Shown piece after piece: positions 29,077 to 37,125 of a DNA stretch of 64,000 nt; the first letter of the stretch is position 1; each line of letters begins with the position of its first letter. Source of the stretch: Candidatus Helarchaeota archaeon. GTDB lineage: Archaea > Asgardarchaeota > Lokiarchaeia > Helarchaeales > RDOG01. The position numbers and the translations under genes were made by a program. The stretch is taken from assembly GCA_019058315.1 (NCBI GenBank), contig JAHPZH010000001.1:279436-343435 (forward strand). The letters are read 5' to 3'. The notes under the pieces were generated by a model. The model was given only the letters and a program-made list of their open reading frames with translations. It made no database searches and was not told where the DNA came from.

Positions 29077-30900
29077 TTGAATGAAAATAAAGTAGGATTA
29101 ATAAAAAACCTACGAATTAATCCGAATCTTGGTCATACTGGAGCAATATCCTCGGTAGCGGTCTCTCCTGATGGAAAGTTTATTATTAGTGGAGCATGCG
29201 ATAGAACTGTTAAAATCTGGGAATTCGAATCCGGAAAACTGCTCCGTACACTCGAAGGACATACTGATTTTGTGCACTCAGTCTCAGTTTCTCCCGACGG
29301 TAATTATATAATCTCAGGGGCTTCTGACAGCTCTATCAAAATTTGGGAGCTAAAGACAGGAAAGCTCATTCACACAATTCAAGAAGTTGATTCAATGCGG
29401 CTTCCACATTCTATGTGGTCTGTGGTTTTTTCACCTGATGGAAAATATATTATTAGTGGAACAAGTGCTTTTGAAAAGTACGTTATGATGTGGGAATTAA
29501 AAACTGGGAAGTTAGTTCATGTTTATAAAGACCATGAAGGATCAGTGGAATCTGTTGCGGTTTCACCAGATGGTAAATATATTGTTTCTGGATCTGATGA
29601 TAGAACTGTAAAAATCTGGGATTTAAAGACTGCAAAACTTATTAGAAATTTATTAGGTCATAAGTTTACTATTACTTCTGTTGCAATTTCTCCTGATGGA
29701 AAATATATTGCCAGTGGGGGTTATGATGAGACTGTTAAGGTCTGGGAAATGGAGACAGGAAAGCTTGTTTATGACCTTATAGGGCATGAATATAATATAA
29801 ATTCTCTCATATTTTCAACTAACGGAAAAATTATTAGTGCATCTGAAGGAGGGGTTATTAAAATTTGGGACATAAAAACGGGGAAGCTTATCCATACAAT
29901 TAAAGCGCATTTAGATATGGCTAGTGTTGCAGTTTCTCCCGATGGTAAATATCTTGTAAGTGGTTCCAGTGATATGACCATTAAAAAGTGGGATATTGAA
30001 ACATGGAAACCAAAGCTTACTATTGAATGTCATAGAGATAGTATATCATCAGTTGCAACATCCCATAATGGTGAATTCATAATCGCTGGTTCTAATTATG
30101 GTACAATTAAAATATGGGATAAAACCTGGAAGATAATTCATACAATCGATGCACATGAGAAATCTGTAAATTCGCTTGCAATATCGTATAATGATAAATA
30201 TTTAATTAGTGGTTCAGATGACAAAATAAAGATTTGGGATTTGAAGACAGGGAAATTAGTAAGTATATTTGGAAAGCCTAAAGATTTAGTGTTTACCGTT
30301 GCTATTTCTCCGGATGGAAAATATATTATTAGTGGTTCTAATGAACTCTGGGCGAATGAAGGCACTGTTAAGATCTGGGATTTCAAAACAGGGAAACTCA
30401 TTCGCACTCTTAAAGGTCATGATAGAATTATTCAATCTGTAACGGTTACACCTGATGGTAAACATATCATTAGTGGTTCAGAAGATAATACTATTAAAAT
30501 TTGGGATTTTAATACAGGAAAGCTTATTGACTCATTTGAAGGACATGAAGTCCATGTTAATTCAGTTTTAGTAACTCCAGATGGTAAAAATATTGTGAGC
30601 GGAGGTAGTGGAGCCCGTGTATCTAAAGTAAAGATTTGGGATTTTTCTACAAGAAAACTTGTTCGAATGCTTGAAGGTCATAAACATATTATTTTTTCAT
30701 TGGATATTTCTTCTGATGGAAAATATATTGCAAGTGGGTCTTATGATAGCACAGTTAGGGTTTGGAGCTTCGATGGAAAACAACAATTCGGTCCCTTTTA
30801 CCATGCAGGATTCATCAATTCAGTTGCTATAATTCCCGGAACAAATTTAGTAGTTGCCGGGGATGATCATGGTGATATAAAAATTTGGAAATTCGCATGA
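29077..30900 (+). CDS. WD40 repeat protein (about 14 blades, double propeller)
   Basis: Repeated GH..V.SVAVSPDGKYIISGS.D.TVKIWD units. Confidence 0.95.
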   Translation: MNENKVGLIKNLRINPNLGHTGAISSVAVSPDGKFIISGACDRTVKIWEFESGKLLRTLEGHTDFVHSVSVSPDGNYIISGASDSSIKIWELKTGKLIHTIQEVDSMRLPHSMWSVVFSPDGKYIISGTSAFEKYVMMWELKTGKLVHVYKDHEGSVESVAVSPDGKYIVSGSDDRTVKIWDLKTAKLIRNLLGHKFTITSVAISPDGKYIASGGYDETVKVWEMETGKLVYDLIGHEYNINSLIFSTNGKIISASEGGVIKIWDIKTGKLIHTIKAHLDMASVAVSPDGKYLVSGSSDMTIKKWDIETWKPKLTIECHRDSISSVATSHNGEFIIAGSNYGTIKIWDKTWKIIHTIDAHEKSVNSLAISYNDKYLISGSDDKIKIWDLKTGKLVSIFGKPKDLVFTVAISPDGKYIISGSNELWANEGTVKIWDFKTGKLIRTLKGHDRIIQSVTVTPDGKHIISGSEDNTIKIWDFNTGKLIDSFEGHEVHVNSVLVTPDGKNIVSGGSGARVSKVKIWDFSTRKLVRMLEGHKHIIFSLDISSDGKYIASGSYDSTVRVWSFDGKQQFGPFYHAGFINSVAIIPGTNLVVAGDDHGDIKIWKFA

Positions 30901-30988
30901 ATTTAAGTTCTTAAATTACGGATATTATACAAAAATTTAATTAAAGTGCGTTAATATTTTTAATAATCTAAAAAAAACTAAGGCAATC

Positions 30989-31639
30989 TTGGTGAATCCC
31001 TTGAGCATTGATGAAGAAATAAGTCAAAAAATTCAAAAAAACATAGAAATCATTAAAAAATATATGCTTGAAGAAATAAAATTAGCACTGAAACACTCTG
31101 GGGAGTATATTAGGAAGAATATGCCAACTTATGAAGCTGCTTATCAATTATTGGTTGGTCCAGATGAAGAAGAACGTTCTATACATCAAATTAATTTAAT
31201 ATTAGAATGTGCTGCTAAATTAAAATCCGATCAGTCGAATATTGAAGAATTAATTGAAGAGACTTTTAAAAAATATTTAAGAAATGATAATCTAGGTTAT
31301 AACATGCGTAAAAAGCATAGAAAAACAGCAGAGGCTTCCGAACTTATTAAAGAGATGTTTAAAAATCATGTTATTAGTTTCTCTAAACTTCTCAGAGGAG
31401 ATGGCGAAACTTATGATGATCTTTCTAGAACGGTAAGTCCAACTTATGAAGAAGCAATTGAGTATGTTAATAAAGAGATTGAAATATCTAAGAAGATTTC
31501 AGACTTGATTCGTAATGATAGAGGGATAATAAATGCACCTGGTTATTTTCGTTATGATATAATGTTAGCAATTTTAGATATAGCTGAGTATGGAAATAAT
31601 AGATTGATAGAAGAAACAAAAAGAATTTATAATAAATAG
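30989..31639 (+). CDS. Hypothetical alpha-helical protein
   Basis: 216-aa ORF in a co-oriented gene run. Confidence 0.65.
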   Translation: MVNPLSIDEEISQKIQKNIEIIKKYMLEEIKLALKHSGEYIRKNMPTYEAAYQLLVGPDEEERSIHQINLILECAAKLKSDQSNIEELIEETFKKYLRNDNLGYNMRKKHRKTAEASELIKEMFKNHVISFSKLLRGDGETYDDLSRTVSPTYEEAIEYVNKEIEISKKISDLIRNDRGIINAPGYFRYDIMLAILDIAEYGNNRLIEETKRIYNK

Positions 31640-31655
31640 AAAATCAGGATTTGAA

Positions 31656-32150
31656 TTGACCAGATTATCTAGCCTTGAAATAAATTGTGATTGTGGACAT
31701 AGGTTTAAAGTTGTATATTATGCTAGCATAAATACTTTTATTGATCCTGATTTCGACACTAGTATAATTAAAGAATTCATTGATGGTACACTTCATGATT
31801 TTAAATGCGAAAATTGTGGCAAAATTCATCATATTAACATGAAAGTTCTAATTAATTGCCCAAAGGGAATGTTCTGGGTTTCTACAACAGAATCGCCAGA
31901 AAACATCAAGAACATATTAACAAATTATGGTGTTCTAAATAAAGATGGAAATGTTGTAGATGGATTTGCTGAAAGACTAGAATCTTGGCTTAAAAAATCT
32001 CCCGAAGAAAGAAAAAAAGAAGCAGAGGATGCAGATGAAAAAATCAAAAACTTAAGAAAAGAATTTTTTGATGGATTAAAAAAAGCATTGGAAAATTCAT
32101 CTGATGAAGAAGAGCAGATGAATAATAAAGAAAATAATGAAGTGAATTAA
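31656..32150 (+). CDS. CpXC-type zinc-ribbon protein
   Basis: CDCGHRF..SIN..GTLHDFKCENCG; charged helical tail. Confidence 0.75.
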   Translation: MTRLSSLEINCDCGHRFKVVYYASINTFIDPDFDTSIIKEFIDGTLHDFKCENCGKIHHINMKVLINCPKGMFWVSTTESPENIKNILTNYGVLNKDGNVVDGFAERLESWLKKSPEERKKEAEDADEKIKNLRKEFFDGLKKALENSSDEEEQMNNKENNEVN

Positions 32151-32197
32151 TAAATAAAATTACTTTATGATCTTGAATATCATGTGGAGGGTTTTAA

Positions 32198-32656
32198 ATG
32201 GTTATTATAAGAAACGCGAAATTTCCAGAAGATTTAATGGAAATTTATGAAATTGAGCAAAATGCATTTGAAAATGATGGTTATTCTATTTATTTTATAA
32301 CTCAAGCTTTAGAATTTTTATCAAATTCGATTTTTGTTGCTGAAGAAAATAATAAGTTAGTTGGTTATATTTTAGGCGCATTAGATCAAAAAGATGGCAA
32401 TCTTGGCTGGTTTTTGAATATTGCTGTTATGAAGGGAAACCAAGGTAAAGGTATTGGATATAAATTACTCGAAAAACTTATGGATTTTTTTAAAGAATCA
32501 AAATGCAAAGAAGTGCATCTCACAGTTGCCCCAAATTATTCACCCGGAATACATTTATATGAAAAATTTGACTTTAAAAAAACCAAAATAATAAAAAATT
32601 ATTTTGGCAAAGGGCAAGATCGGCTTTTAATGATTAGGGATTTAAGTACTGTTTAA
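32198..32656 (+). CDS. GNAT N-acetyltransferase (RimI-like)
   Basis: NIAV..NQGKGIGYKL, LTV..N..GIHLYEKFDF, KNYF; ggagg SD. Confidence 0.9.
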   Translation: MVIIRNAKFPEDLMEIYEIEQNAFENDGYSIYFITQALEFLSNSIFVAEENNKLVGYILGALDQKDGNLGWFLNIAVMKGNQGKGIGYKLLEKLMDFFKESKCKEVHLTVAPNYSPGIHLYEKFDFKKTKIIKNYFGKGQDRLLMIRDLSTV

Positions 32657-32694
32657 ATTGGATAATTTGACTGTTAAGAAAAGAGGTTGTTTAA

Positions 32695-35439
32695 ATGGAA
32701 GAAAAAGAGACTAAATTTAATGAATATCTTATTTTATTAGATGATAAGAAGAAAGATTATACTAGAATTTACGACTTAATAAGAGGTTGGGAAGAAACTG
32801 TATGGACTGGGTTAACTTTAGGCAGGTTTGATATTGTTGCAAAAATAAATTTGCCTGTATCAATTAATATTACGGATTTCCTATATGATGAAATTCATGC
32901 TCTTTTCCCTGAATCTGATATCTATTTAAAAATTTTTAAAATTACAGACGAAGTGTTCAGACAAGATAAGAGCAAGATTGGGAATTATAACATAATAGGA
33001 ACTACTCTTATACATCTAATTTTTGATAAAGTTGAAAAAAATGAAAAATTAATAAATTTCAAAAAGAGATTATTTAAACAACAAGTCAAAGATATCCCAA
33101 AAATAATTGAATTCGTTGAAATTAATGAACAAATATTGACTCCCAAACAAGATATGGGTAAATATATTCCAGAATTATTAAAATTATCTGATTTTAACCT
33201 TATAGATGATTTAACTCCAATTGATGAATTTTCTGCGGACACAAATCAAATATATCAAAGCTTTAATTTTGCATATCTTTTCAATGTAAATGAAATCGAA
33301 GAAGTAAATGAGATAATTAAGTCCTTAAGCAGATTAACTGAAGAGTTTAACATTGAAATGGCCGATACGGAGAGTATGATTTGGTCCAAAGAATGGTTAC
33401 AAGAGATCGAGTTTGAGAAATATTCAGCATTTGGGAATCATTTTGTTATAATAGATGAACGTTCAAAATGGCCTTTAATTCCAGAAGGAATGAAATCCTT
33501 TTTTGCTGTTCATGCAAATGACTTTTACTTTGGTGTAGGTAGCAATGATATATTATTCATACAACCACCCGAACTAGAATTAATTGCATATTTGGTTACT
33601 AGAAATAAGATTAGAGATTATCTGGTCTCAAATGTTAATAATTTTTGGCAGAATAATTTAAAAATTAACTTTCTTGCCACATTAGAAAGTAATTTTAAAA
33701 TTGCACTATATAATACTCCATTACTGAGTCTAATTGTAAATTTACTAACAATGAAGCCAAAAAAAGATATTGATATTGAAGATAGTTCTCAATATCTAAT
33801 TAGAAGCTCTAAAATTTATGGCGTTATAATCGAAGTTTTACAAAATATTCTACAAGATATCCTATTAAATTATAAACGTAATTTAAAGATATCTGCAGAG
33901 AAATATAAACATTTAGAGAAGCTAACTCCGAACGAGATTTTTCCCATCAATAGATACAAAGAATTTATTGAAATTTTAAAAAATAAGTTTAAAGAGGTGC
34001 TAAGAACCGTAAAGATGAATGATGTGGATGTAATTATGAGGATTATCGAAAGGGATGGTTCTGAAGCAGATATGTGTGGAAATGGAATAAGATGTGTAGC
34101 TGATTATCTCTTTAAAAATCCTATCCAAACTCTTGATGGGCAATTAAAACCATCTGAAAAACTTATTGTCCTTACAGAAACAGTTAATGACGATTTTATT
34201 CCAAGAGAGATAAGGAAGAGTGTAAAAGGAGAATACATTGTCAATATGAATGAATTGAAACCTGTAAATAGTATTTATTATACGGTAGTGAATAAAGGAA
34301 CCCATTTAAAATATCTCGATAAAGATTCCCCTATTTTTTTAATACGTATTCCTGTAATTAAGAAATATAATCCTAAAGCTTCTAAAAATTATTCGTTAAA
34401 CTATCCGATAATTGAATGGCATTGTAGAACTACAGATTCTGAAGATGAAGATTATGGTATATATGGTCTATATTTGGCTTTTGGAGAACCACATTTAGTA
34501 TTTTTCTCTGATGAAATAATAGAAGGTAAAAAATCATCTAATATCAATAAAATTTTAAATTATTTATGGAATATGGGACCTCTTGTCAAATCGACCGTGG
34601 AAAATATCGATACAGATTCAAAACAAGTAGAGGAAAAAAGTGATAAAATAGACTTTTTAGCACTTCCAAGCATAGAAACAAGCGCTGAGGATGTAATGTC
34701 CTTAATTTATGCACTTGGAGATTGGGGGAATATATCTTCTGAGAAATTTGGTGAGGTTTTTACTGTTAAAAGTAAAAATATCCAGCCTGGAATGACTTTC
34801 TCAAGAAATGTTGCCATTAAACAAGAAGAAGGAAAAATAATTTATGATATGATTGATCGAGCAGGTGTTAATGTTAATTTAATTACCTTAAGAAGTATCA
34901 GAAAACCAAAACCCGAAACATCTGCCCAATATTATTATGAATTGAATCAATTAGTATACGAACGTGGGATGGGAGCCTCTCCAATAACTCTGGCATGTGG
35001 GACAGGAATGACATCATCTGCTGTTGCTCTATATGAATTATTTAAAAAAATGGCTGAAATGTTCAACTCCTCTGATTTACCTGAAGAAATAAAAGAATTA
35101 ATAAAAAATTTCAATCTAGAGGTCGTTAAACCAGGATATGGCATTAACGATAATGATTCTGTAACATTTCCAGTCATCCCTTTGGGTTCAAAATATAATT
35201 TTTCTGAAGATGTTACTAATTTACCAACGGCAAGTTTCGGTAGAGTATTTTCTTCATATATTAATGAAATCTGTATGAGATCCACGCTGGGGGCTAAACA
35301 ACCCTACCATAATGTAGATTTTGGAGAATTTGGTAGAGTAAATATTGAAGTAACTGAAAAAAAAGATTTGGTTGAAGCAAAAATGATAGGTATAGCATCC
35401 CATGTTTATCGGGGGCGATTGATAAGATCTTCGTTATAG
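32695..35439 (+). CDS. Giant DapF-family (two-cysteine) epimerase/racemase with N-terminal Lrp/AsnC RAM-like domains and large insertions
   Basis: FEKYSAFGNHFVIID, GVGSNDILFI, MRIIERDGSEADMCGNGIRCVA, GEPHLVFF, GVNVN, YERG..TLACGTG, MIGIASHVYRG; N-terminal LGRFDIVAKI RAM-like motif. Confidence 0.8.
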   Translation: MEEKETKFNEYLILLDDKKKDYTRIYDLIRGWEETVWTGLTLGRFDIVAKINLPVSINITDFLYDEIHALFPESDIYLKIFKITDEVFRQDKSKIGNYNIIGTTLIHLIFDKVEKNEKLINFKKRLFKQQVKDIPKIIEFVEINEQILTPKQDMGKYIPELLKLSDFNLIDDLTPIDEFSADTNQIYQSFNFAYLFNVNEIEEVNEIIKSLSRLTEEFNIEMADTESMIWSKEWLQEIEFEKYSAFGNHFVIIDERSKWPLIPEGMKSFFAVHANDFYFGVGSNDILFIQPPELELIAYLVTRNKIRDYLVSNVNNFWQNNLKINFLATLESNFKIALYNTPLLSLIVNLLTMKPKKDIDIEDSSQYLIRSSKIYGVIIEVLQNILQDILLNYKRNLKISAEKYKHLEKLTPNEIFPINRYKEFIEILKNKFKEVLRTVKMNDVDVIMRIIERDGSEADMCGNGIRCVADYLFKNPIQTLDGQLKPSEKLIVLTETVNDDFIPREIRKSVKGEYIVNMNELKPVNSIYYTVVNKGTHLKYLDKDSPIFLIRIPVIKKYNPKASKNYSLNYPIIEWHCRTTDSEDEDYGIYGLYLAFGEPHLVFFSDEIIEGKKSSNINKILNYLWNMGPLVKSTVENIDTDSKQVEEKSDKIDFLALPSIETSAEDVMSLIYALGDWGNISSEKFGEVFTVKSKNIQPGMTFSRNVAIKQEEGKIIYDMIDRAGVNVNLITLRSIRKPKPETSAQYYYELNQLVYERGMGASPITLACGTGMTSSAVALYELFKKMAEMFNSSDLPEEIKELIKNFNLEVVKPGYGINDNDSVTFPVIPLGSKYNFSEDVTNLPTASFGRVFSSYINEICMRSTLGAKQPYHNVDFGEFGRVNIEVTEKKDLVEAKMIGIASHVYRGRLIRSSL

Positions 35440-37125
35440 TTGGTGGGTATGATGATATTTAGAAAGAATTTATATGTAGCAGCAATGGGTGCCGTCGGTT
35501 CTGGAAAAAGTTCGTTTTTGGGTCAGTACTTCATTAAATCGAAGGCGATCGACGATTACGAATTAAATTATTTAGAGGATATTGTCAGAAAGGAGTACAA
35601 AGATGAAGCGGAAATAAAGAAGAACTTATTATTAGAGATATTTAGATCGCAAGAGATTGATCCAATAAAAAGGCAAAAAAAACGAAAATATGAAATTTCA
35701 AGCTTAGATTCAAAAATATCTGCATATACTATGGATATATCCTCATTAAGAGCACAACTATCCTATATCAATCATGAAATTGAAAATAAAAAAGATAGAA
35801 TTTTATCTTCTGATAAACAAGAATTAGACTCTATTATAACAAAGCTTCAGAATGATTTAAAGGTAAAATCTGGAAAATTGAACACTTTAAAGGATATTCA
35901 AGATAAACAATCCATAATTGTTAGTTATAGAAAAGATATTACCGAAGCTGCAGATTTACCAATGAGAATCTGGAAAGATGTTATTTTTATTGATGTACTT
36001 GGAACTTCACAACACCTTAAAAGTCTAATAAATGAGTCCACATTTTTAGATATAGCAATTATTGTTATAGATATTACAAATTTTCAAAATCAATTAGATT
36101 TACAAACATCAGGAGAAATTTTGCAAAATGGAATTATTGCAAAGATTTTTGGAGCGAAAAAAATTATATTAGTAATTAATAAGCTTGATAAAGTTGATTA
36201 TTCAGAAAAAAAATATCTTGAATGTAAAAAAGATGTCCAATTTAGGTTATCAGAATATTGTGGGATTAGCAAAGATCAACTAATAGCTATTCCAATTAAT
36301 TCTCTTGATGGTGAAAATATTATTCAAAAAAGCGATAAACTAAGTTGGTATTATGAAAAAGACGAATATCCATTAAATTTTCATGAAGTTTTAGAAGTCG
36401 AATTGCAAGAATTACGTAAATTAAAAGAGATAAACACATCTAAATTAAAAGATGAGGATTCTTTGATATTTTATGTGAATGATATATCTAAGGATGAATT
36501 AGGCGTAATTGGATATTTACAATATGGAACAATTACTCGTGAAAAAGATTATGTAACATTCCTTCCACCAATATCAGAAGAAGAATCTTATAAATTCTTA
36601 ATAGACAAAATTTTAACTTACCAAGGAGAAAATATATTAAATTTTACTCCAACAGATTCAATCGTTGCCGAAAAATATCCTGTTAAATTGTTATTGGGAA
36701 GTATTCAAAAAGAATACCTCTCGGAAATTAAAAAGGGAATGATTATTACAAAATATCATTCTGATGGAAAATATCCTAATTTAACATGGGCTAATAAGTT
36801 TATTGGGACACTTTATATAATATATCATCCCACTCCTATCGGGATGAGAACAACTTCTAATTTAATACATCATACATTTAATACAACATGTTTCTTCCAC
36901 CAATTCATGACAAGTAAAAATAATATTATTCAAAATGTAGGTACTAATGAATCTGTTAAATTTTGGTTGGAAACACAAAATACAATCCCACTATTAAAAA
37001 CAAAAAATATCAAAGGAAAGGATAATTTTGGGCACTTTATCCTTTATGAAGGTCAAAGAGCAATGGGTGTAGGAATATTCGAAGAAATAATTGGTAATTG
37101 GGATTTCGAACCTCTCAATTGGTAA
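35440..37125 (+). CDS. Divergent EF-1alpha-like translational GTPase (probable start ATG 35449 or 35452)
   Basis: GAVGSGKS, YTMDIS, DVLGT, NKLD, PINSLDGENI; domain III FIGTLYIIYHPTPI..HTFNTTCFF and FGHFILYEGQRAMGVG. Confidence 0.82.
   Translation: MVGMMIFRKNLYVAAMGAVGSGKSSFLGQYFIKSKAIDDYELNYLEDIVRKEYKDEAEIKKNLLLEIFRSQEIDPIKRQKKRKYEISSLDSKISAYTMDISSLRAQLSYINHEIENKKDRILSSDKQELDSIITKLQNDLKVKSGKLNTLKDIQDKQSIIVSYRKDITEAADLPMRIWKDVIFIDVLGTSQHLKSLINESTFLDIAIIVIDITNFQNQLDLQTSGEILQNGIIAKIFGAKKIILVINKLDKVDYSEKKYLECKKDVQFRLSEYCGISKDQLIAIPINSLDGENIIQKSDKLSWYYEKDEYPLNFHEVLEVELQELRKLKEINTSKLKDEDSLIFYVNDISKDELGVIGYLQYGTITREKDYVTFLPPISEEESYKFLIDKILTYQGENILNFTPTDSIVAEKYPVKLLLGSIQKEYLSEIKKGMIITKYHSDGKYPNLTWANKFIGTLYIIYHPTPIGMRTTSNLIHHTFNTTCFFHQFMTSKNNIIQNVGTNESVKFWLETQNTIPLLKTKNIKGKDNFGHFILYEGQRAMGVGIFEEIIGNWDFEPLNW

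Follow-up and report, generated by a model that had tools for sequence, protein, structure and literature searches.

DapF-fold racemases and an enlarged relative in a helarchaeal genome

Diaminopimelate (DAP) epimerase, or DapF (EC 5.1.1.7; PF01678, TIGR00652; PDB 9mro, 1gqz/2gke, 3ejx), has a two-domain pseudosymmetric fold in which a pair of cysteines is placed at the heads of two central helices. The distal carboxylate of DAP is described as receiving hydrogen bonds from Asn64, Asn157 and Asn190 and as forming a salt bridge with Arg209, and the distal amine as being held by Asn64 and Glu208 as well (PMC8225329 citing Pillai 2006; PMC12039745 for 9mro). Other two-base racemases share this fold and have their distal residues replaced, namely PddB, which acts on 2,4-diaminobutyrate, DcsC, which acts on O-ureidoserine (7vdy), and CntK/HisR, which acts on histidine (6jis, 9cr6) (PMC8225329, PMC11602996), and new types of such racemases are expected in the field (PMC12039745). 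Here we describe a DapF-like protein of 914 residues (P0001), called the giant below, whose gene lies at 32695-35439 on the forward strand of a 64,000-nucleotide stretch of contig JAHPZH010000001.1 of a Candidatus Helarchaeota archaeon; this whole stretch is referred to as the window.

The giant is predicted to be, probably, a real and selected cofactor-independent racemase or epimerase of the DapF fold, which would use two cysteines, act on a substrate other than DAP, and not be the DAP epimerase of its cell. DapF-fold catalysis on a non-DAP substrate is predicted because the core is intact, glutamates occupy the positions of both Asn64 and Asn157 (the E/E signature), the genome holds a separate housekeeping DapF, related E/E proteins are uncoupled from LysA, and the gene is under purifying selection.

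The giant shares 29% identity with DapF over 277 core residues and differs from it at Asn64 and Asn157, in length (914 against about 280 residues), in its TIGR00652 score, and in its linkage to lysine synthesis. PddB has all three asparagines replaced and Val in place of Arg209, whereas the giant keeps Arg209 and Asn190. PddB, DcsC and CntK/HisR are not enlarged, unlike the giant.

Organization of the gene

The giant is encoded by a single open reading frame (ORF) that runs without interruption for 914 codons plus a stop codon, in a window of about 30% G+C, with GAGG at 32683-32686, 8 nt 5' of the ATG. Its motifs are GNHF (residues 247-250), IIERDG, MCGNG (Cys461), GEPH, ERG and LACGTG (Cys768), in agreement with the first-pass annotation of this DNA where it names them. 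The two cysteines are 307 residues apart, again in agreement with that annotation, as compared with about 145 in the canonical 285-aa DapF of the same genome. The helical insert that it had placed at nt 33570-34015, with further inserts behind it, matches insertion 1 at 33583-34014, and four more insertions have been mapped. The features of the gene, all on the + strand, are as follows.

32695..35439, +: whole ORF, giant DapF-like protein, 914 aa (ORF call, translation, GAGG upstream)
32695..33396, +: N-terminal extension, residues 1-234, orphan (outside the family alignment; pLDDT <50)
33397..33582, +: core segment A, residues 235-296, first strands of DapF domain 1, with GVGSND (pLDDT >90)
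33433-33444, +: GNHF in core segment A, where Asn248 corresponds to DapF Asn11
33583..34014, +: insertion 1, residues 297-440, predicted helical (alignment, model)
34015..34530, +: core segments B and C, residues 441-612, with small loop insertions (profile and alignment)
34048-34050, +: Glu452, at the position of Asn64, in core segments B and C
34075-34077, +: codon of catalytic Cys461, followed by Gly462-Asn463, in core segments B and C
34486-34488, +: Glu598 in GEPH, at the position of Asn157, in core segments B and C
34531..34689, +: insertion 2, residues 613-665
34789..34860, +: insertion 3, residues 699-722
34861..35049, +: core segment E, residues 723-785
34870-34872, +: Asn726, equivalent to Asn190, in core segment E
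34960-34965, +: Glu756-Arg757, equivalent to Glu208-Arg209, in core segment E
34996-34998, +: codon of catalytic Cys768, followed by Gly769-Thr770, in core segment E
35050..35325, +: insertions 4 (residues 786-819) and 5 (residues 835-877), around a short core strand (residues 820-834)
35326..35436, +: C-terminal core strands, residues 878-914 (pLDDT >90; the DapF alignment reaches residues 910-914)

The C-terminal strand of the DapF fold has been assigned a dimer-forming role (PMC11602996).

Sequence profiles recognize the giant in pieces. The Pfam model DAP_epimerase (PF01678) scores 53.7 bits against a threshold of 34.7, in a single short stretch (residues 437-477), the second domain being too interrupted to be scored. 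The DapF equivalog TIGR00652, with a cut-off of 114.65, matches in three pieces for 83.8 bits and so falls short. Solved DapFs in the PDB align to the giant in three separate stretches, residues 238-293, 442-472 and 750-779. The histidine racemase CntK/HisR model NF033599 gave no match to the giant at E values up to 1. Sediment metagenome contigs from a separate study span every junction between core and insert, at about 93-97% identity, and since these independent contigs bridge all the junctions, the giant is not an assembly artefact.

Fold and active site

An AlphaFold model of the giant was built on an alignment of 106 sequences (A2), which contains 82 other E/E rows and 22 canonical-type rows; single-sequence folding gave a pLDDT of 31.5 and was not used. 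The alignment-based model has a pTM of 0.67, with pLDDT above 90 in the core segments and below 50 in the extension and most of the insertions. It superposes on the closed, inhibitor-bound DapF 9mro_A over 277/279 residues (model residues 237-910), with a Z score of 24.3, an rmsd of 3.0 A and a Foldseek TM score (target) of 0.78. Superposition is comparable on other DapFs and on the O-ureidoserine racemase DcsC (7vdy, Z 24.4), and the histidine racemases (Z 20 to CntK/HisR), PhzF and the proline-racemase families fall at Z 17-20.

Because the model superposes on closed DapF, we infer that both domains are placed as in the catalytic form and that the two cysteines would thereby lie opposite each other. 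The first-pass annotation had named a model with the cysteines not juxtaposed as grounds for giving up its reading, and the superposition on closed DapF gives no such result. The giant keeps the equivalents of Asn11, Cys73, Gly74, Asn75, Asn190, Glu208, Arg209, Cys217, Gly218 and Thr219, as aligned in A2. In the distal-carboxylate site Asn64 is replaced by Glu452 and Asn157 by Glu598, while Asn726 (Asn190) and Arg757 (Arg209) are unchanged. That the asparagines take part in binding the distal end of DAP, as the first-pass annotation stated, agrees with PMC8225329 and PMC12039745. Taken together, the fold and the active-site geometry of the modelled giant look intact.

A pocket signature shared by a large family

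E/E proteins are defined here as DapF-like sequences with Glu at both the Asn64 and the Asn157 positions. Among the 82 other E/E rows of A2, the Asn157 position is Glu throughout (82/82), and the Asn64 position is Glu, with Asp in one row of the long clade described below. Asn11, Cys73, Gly74, Asn75, Glu208, Arg209 and Gly218 are invariant in the E/E rows, and Asn190, Cys217 and Thr219 are nearly so. The canonical-type DapFs of the same alignment have Asn64 in 22/22 rows; at position 157 they carry Asn in 15 and Val in 7, which makes that position weak evidence when taken alone. Val157 DapFs that are otherwise canonical (TGVPH or MGVPH) are found in Planctomycetota, Bacteroidota, Chlamydiota and Omnitrophota, and their occurrence across several phyla indicates that Asn157 is not universally required. 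A further group, from Chloroflexota, Bipolaricaulota and Thermotogota, reads LFDRDGPE ... TGEPH and is thus of an Asp/Glu type.

In an exhaustive search of 1.84 billion representatives, the top matches to the giant after its orthologue were E/E proteins of 340-430 aa, with E values from 7e-19 to 1e-12, which carry FEPDG, TGEPH and GN(N/H)F. The family as a whole has two forms. The short form, of about 285 aa, retains GNDF and is found in Thermoplasmatota, Culexarchaeota, Caldisericota and others. The long form, of 340-460 aa, belongs mostly to bacterial signalling and transport cassettes; in this long clade GNDF is changed to GN(N/H/T/S/K)F, the giant having GNHF. In two trees the giant groups with the long E/E clade, with SH-aLRT values of 98 (106 rows) and 96 (42 rows), and apart from the Asn/Asn DapF of its own genome.

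By its signature, then, the giant is a member of a large E/E branch, and the pair of Asn-to-Glu changes is a family trait and not specific to the giant. It shares with the family the same Glu/Glu pocket and, with the long form, GN(N/H)F and extra loop residues, and it is two to three times longer. To judge by these comparisons its peculiarity is its size, not its pocket. Many E/E relatives score beyond the TIGR00652 cut-off, and their source databases list them as diaminopimelate epimerase. A literature search, incomplete in its coverage, found no paper describing the E/E family.

Uncoupling of E/E proteins from lysine synthesis

The 5.8-Mb genome to which the giant belongs encodes a separate 285-aa DapF with GNDF, IFNSDGSE and GNPH, which scores 312.3 bits on TIGR00652, and also LysA. 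As a canonical DapF and LysA are thus present elsewhere in the genome, the giant is an extra copy.

The relation between DapF type and lysine synthesis was followed in a sample of 81 Thermoplasmata genomes that are at least 85% complete, 16 of which have a DapF homologue above the Pfam cut-off; these genomes are related and not independent, so that what they give is a clean pattern rather than a statistic. lysA was adjacent to the gene in 8/8 classified Asn/Asn DapFs, as against 0/7 E/E genomes with any LysA match above cut-off, one of these seven being a complete 2.0-Mb chromosome. One further genome has a lysA-dapF pair whose DapF type was left unclassified by the motif search. In a complete 2.0-Mb Thermoplasmata chromosome and three metagenome-assembled genomes (MAGs; two of about 1.4 Mb, one of 1.1 Mb), the sole DapF homologue is of the E/E or the Asp/Glu type and no LysA was found above cut-off. 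Candidatus Culexmicrobium holds both types, with an Asn/Asn DapF directly after lysA and an E/E copy on a different contig.

Comparative genomics backs the view that E/E proteins are not lysine-pathway enzymes and that their substrate would be other than DAP. The first-pass annotation had argued for a different, possibly basic, substrate (Lys/Orn/Arg-like) from the two Asn-to-Glu changes of the giant. The non-DAP part of this claim is backed by the genomic pattern, and the basic substrate is a conjecture; the changes themselves mark a large family, and Arg209 and Asn190 have been kept.

Two side observations concern LysA itself. Candidatus Culexmicrobium has two full-length LysA genes, of 484 bits each (L104 on G402:C10; G402:C1:239620-240858), one of which is in a lysine operon with the Asn/Asn dapF. 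In the Thermoplasmata sample (G405-G484), LysA is found above cut-off in 27/81 genomes and a PF01678 DapF in 9/27 of those; the remaining 18 LysA-bearing genomes would either make meso-DAP in a different way or have a DapF that escaped the search.

Gene contexts of the E/E family

The short form is repeatedly found, in four phyla, beside an Amidohydro_3 enzyme of the PRK09061 type, with a class-III aminotransferase-family gene and a peptide ABC transporter nearby. We take the PRK09061-type enzymes to be kin to N-acyl-D-amino-acid deacylases. The class-III aminotransferase family acts mainly on omega-amines, and its member next to the short form matched GSA-aminomutase-like or archaeal racemase-like models.

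The long form has a different setting. In 45/64 metagenomic loci, it is followed by an MFS-type membrane protein of about 870 aa, an unknown protein of 535 aa and ABC_sub_bind proteins, with a dCache histidine kinase upstream. Long E/E domains are also fused to a receiver, an EAL or the MFS-type module of about 870 aa (P0015, P0018, P0028, P0092, P0225, P0239).

Extension, insertions and selection

The giant is enlarged by an N-terminal extension of 234 residues and by five insertions (297-440, 613-665, 699-722, 786-819 and 835-877), and some of its loops are lengthened in addition. Three segments can be compared across the family.

Loop from LFIQ to MRI: 9 residues in canonical DapFs (median), 30 in long E/E proteins (median), 158 in the giant
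Loop from GEPH to NVN: 30 residues in canonical DapFs, 62 in long E/E proteins, 125 in the giant
Segment after the second cysteine: 52 residues in canonical DapFs, 59 in long E/E proteins, 138 in the giant

As far as the alignment goes, the insertions of the giant occupy sites that are already enlarged in the long E/E clade. Neither the insertions nor the N-terminus has a significant Pfam match; LAGLIDADG appears at E 5.7, which is noise, and no intein signature was found. There is no paralogue of the insertions or the extension in the giant's own genome. No family member covers the extension (residues 1-234), whose sole homologue among 5.8 billion proteins is P0003, and a shorter stand-alone homologue was not found there either. 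The insertions have normal sequence complexity, at 3.7-4.1 bits.

Comparison with the orthologue gives 88% identity in the core and 80% in the non-core parts. The extension is 82% and insertion 1 80% identical, neither having indels, and indels are likewise absent from insertions 2-4. Among the sediment relatives, most indels within the giant gene are of 3 or 6 nt and keep the frame; only one contig departs from this, where 1 nt is lost and, five bases away, 1 nt is gained. Of the best-supported variants 9/16 are synonymous, as compared with 20% synonymous sites, and a rough dN/dS is about 0.2, from a small and non-random sample of 16 listed variants. The giant is under purifying selection, its added parts apparently included.

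The N-terminal extension had been likened in the first-pass annotation to tandem RAM domains of Lrp/AsnC regulators. Four methods returned weak signals in the same register, none of them significant. The Pfam model AsnC_trans_reg (PF01037) matches residues 15-54, which include a G-x-F-D-I-hydrophobic strand motif, at E 0.034, its 14.5 bits falling short of the cut-off of 25. Alignment with hhalign to eleven RAM domains of the same genome gives E 0.022 and a probability of 2% at residues 23-54. In a protein atlas, the nearest clusters of the extension are all AsnC ligand-binding domains, with a score of 0.80 that is below the lead threshold. A local RAM HMM scores 4.9-7.5 bits, where shuffled sequences have their 99th percentile at 5.3, and also touches residues 173-214, where the second weak match lies. 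Residues 1-234 were modelled as helices with pLDDT below 50 and no alignment depth, whereas the RAM fold is beta-alpha-beta-beta-alpha-beta, and the region has no homologue beyond the orthologue. What stands of the comparison is thus a set of concordant faint matches, and an N-terminal RAM-like sensor is a tentative lead, doubtful as it is. The tandem arrangement, and the allosteric control that the first-pass annotation proposed through these domains, are conjectures.

Distribution among Asgard archaea

The closest homologues of the giant are P0002 and its N-terminal fragment P0003, two partial proteins from one Promethearchaeota (Asgard) MAG that are 84-85% identical to it; the orthologue's records are GenBank protein MFX1449837.1 and locus tag ACFFCM_11535. 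In 400 genomes of the phylum, the giant was found only in its own genome; the other matches were DapFs of about 300 aa, aligned at the motif of the first cysteine, and these were Asn/Asn in 19/19 inspected. Further giants were sought in genome contigs, in JGI metagenomes, in 5.8 billion clustered proteins and in 1.84 billion representatives, and only P0002/P0003 and close sediment relatives were recovered.

When the 400 genomes were queried with P0004, the closest long-form protein, no other E/E copy was detected and a single match, P0268, was obtained. This DapF-like protein of 294 aa, from Asgard genome G001 (L237:1318-2199 (+)), keeps both cysteines; Asp stands at the position of Asn64 (LFDRE) and at that of Asn157 (SGDPH), and Arg209 is replaced by Ala (YEAGV). 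Being Asp/Asp and lacking Arg209, P0268 is a further pocket variant of the fold and not an E/E protein such as was sought as an ancestor within the phylum. The lack of any other E/E copy in the phylum fits either horizontal acquisition or wide loss.

Weighing the alternatives

Several observations weigh against the reading of the giant as a non-DAP racemase of the E/E family. The giant and its orthologue are joined to the tree by a very long stem, of 1.67 changes per site, and the approximately unbiased (AU) test on the 42-row subset leaves a grouping of the giant with canonical DapF unrejected (p 0.086). Arg209 and Asn190 are retained, so that only part of the distal site is changed; this calls for caution about a lysine or ornithine substrate in particular, an acidic or zwitterionic end group being possible. 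Within the long E/E clade, P0028 is without either catalytic cysteine (TGGNG, WASGTG), which suggests a non-catalytic, ligand-binding use of the scaffold in that protein. Lastly, the giant has neither of the conserved E/E gene contexts, and no function can therefore be transferred to it by context.

The loss of cysteines in P0028 bears on the idea that the giant itself is non-catalytic, a ligand-binding or scaffold protein in which the DapF fold would act as a sensor or would carry the helical inserts. The fusions of long E/E relatives to receiver, EAL and MFS modules point in the same direction, as does the large share of non-catalytic sequence in the giant, which exceeds one half, and E. coli DapF itself has a non-enzymatic partner role with RppH (PMC6061791). 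What makes this rather unlikely is that the cysteines and all the head-group ligands are conserved in both orthologues despite the long stem. Conservation of the ligands over such a distance argues for selection for catalysis or for tight substrate binding.

A second, perhaps regulated, DAP epimerase isozyme for lysine synthesis would account for the retention of all the head-group ligands together with Arg209, Glu208 and Asn190, and for the many E/E relatives that pass the TIGR00652 cut-off and bear the name in their source databases; the Val found at position 157 in 7/22 canonical-type DapFs also shows latitude there. Against it, Asn64, which is Glu in the giant, is invariant in the canonical set (22/22), the genome already holds a canonical DapF and LysA, and the giant's 83.8 bits fall short of the 114.65 required. 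Moreover, E/E proteins occur where LysA gives no match or, where a lysA-dapF pair is present, apart from it. A DAP isozyme is thus improbable.

The giant might instead catalyse another reaction of the wider fold, as an isomerase or dehydratase in the manner of PhzF, PrpF or 3-hydroxyproline dehydratase, and its model does align with PhzF, YddE and proline-racemase-like proteins at Z 17-20. Its identity to DapF over the aligned core is 29%, however, as against 9-16% for those families, and its Cys/Cys pair, together with the GN and GT helix caps, is of the DapF type, which leaves such a reaction quite implausible.

That the gene is a decaying or drifting ORF, or an artefact of assembly or annotation with junk for inserts, as the orphan status and low model confidence of the insertions and extension, the AT-rich genome and the likewise inflated, lineage-specific EF-1alpha paralogue next to it might suggest, is very hard to credit for an ORF open over 914 codons, with all its junctions bridged by independent assemblies, an orthologue 80% identical in the non-core parts without indels there, mostly frame-preserving indels, a synonymous excess and normal complexity.

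Proposed mechanism and substrate

If the giant is a non-DAP racemase of the DapF fold, the Cys461 thiolate and the Cys768 thiol would be the pair that exchanges the proton at C-alpha of an alpha-amino acid. The substrate carboxylate would be held by the N-termini of both central helices (Gly462-Asn463 and Gly769-Thr770) and its amine on Asn248 and Glu756, and the end of the side chain would be received in a pocket made acidic by the two extra carboxylates. Such a pocket should turn away DAP, because of its distal carboxylate, and suit a side chain whose end is neutral or cationic. The lineage would have added the extension and the five insertions to an E/E core at loops that were lengthened already in the long clade, and these additions may be for regulation, partner binding or assembly.

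A basic or diamino substrate of the lysine or ornithine type is the leading guess, and a tentative one given what the sequence offers; the class-III aminotransferase-family gene beside the short form agrees with it only in a loose way. A bolder proposal, which we consider unlikely, is that the E/E branch is a new cofactor-independent racemase for a basic or diamino acid (e.g. lysine or ornithine), serving the handling of D-amino acids and not lysine synthesis, and that the giant is its first fusion with a RAM-like module for sensing amino acids and helical insertions, ligand-gated or partner-bound.

Genomic neighbourhood of the giant

The genes that flank the giant on either side are the following.

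32198..32656, +: GNAT acetyltransferase, 152 aa, RimI-like, below the family cut-off, 38 nt upstream of the giant
35449..37125, +: diverged EF-1alpha paralogue (EF-1alpha-like GTPase), about 9 nt downstream of the giant

Linkage between the GNAT gene and the giant is kept in a close sediment relative, of which one contig of 866 nt spans 32236-33101. The EF-1alpha paralogue (561 aa when counted from 35440) probably starts at ATG 35449 or 35452 and not at TTG 35440, because relatives carry 2-nt indels (insertions) at 35446/35447. It is lineage-specific and was found in this genome alone; 25 related genomes match it only through their ordinary EF-1alpha of about 435 aa, at 25-33% identity over about 120 residues. 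A search with PADLOC of the giant and five neighbours returned nothing relevant.

Six co-directional genes occupy 29077-37125 (+), encoding a WD40 protein, an unknown ORF of 216 aa, a CpXC protein, the GNAT protein, the giant and the EF-1alpha paralogue. They are separated by gaps of 9-88 nt and may form one transcription unit of lineage-specific genes.

Implications

E/E proteins that are named diaminopimelate epimerase are likely mis-annotated; in the genomes searched they turn up precisely where the lysine pathway is missing. In this family the cofactor-independent racemase fold probably has a substrate specificity not yet described, with a bearing on the turnover of D-amino acids in sediments. 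In the giant, a fold of about 280 residues has been stretched by about 630 extra residues in six places, with every catalytic residue kept in position and under selection. Lineage-specific paralogues of enlarged size are a noted feature of these archaea, the EF-1alpha paralogue beside the giant being another case. The giant is thus a natural test case for the tolerance of an enzyme fold to insertions, and possibly for regulation added by them.

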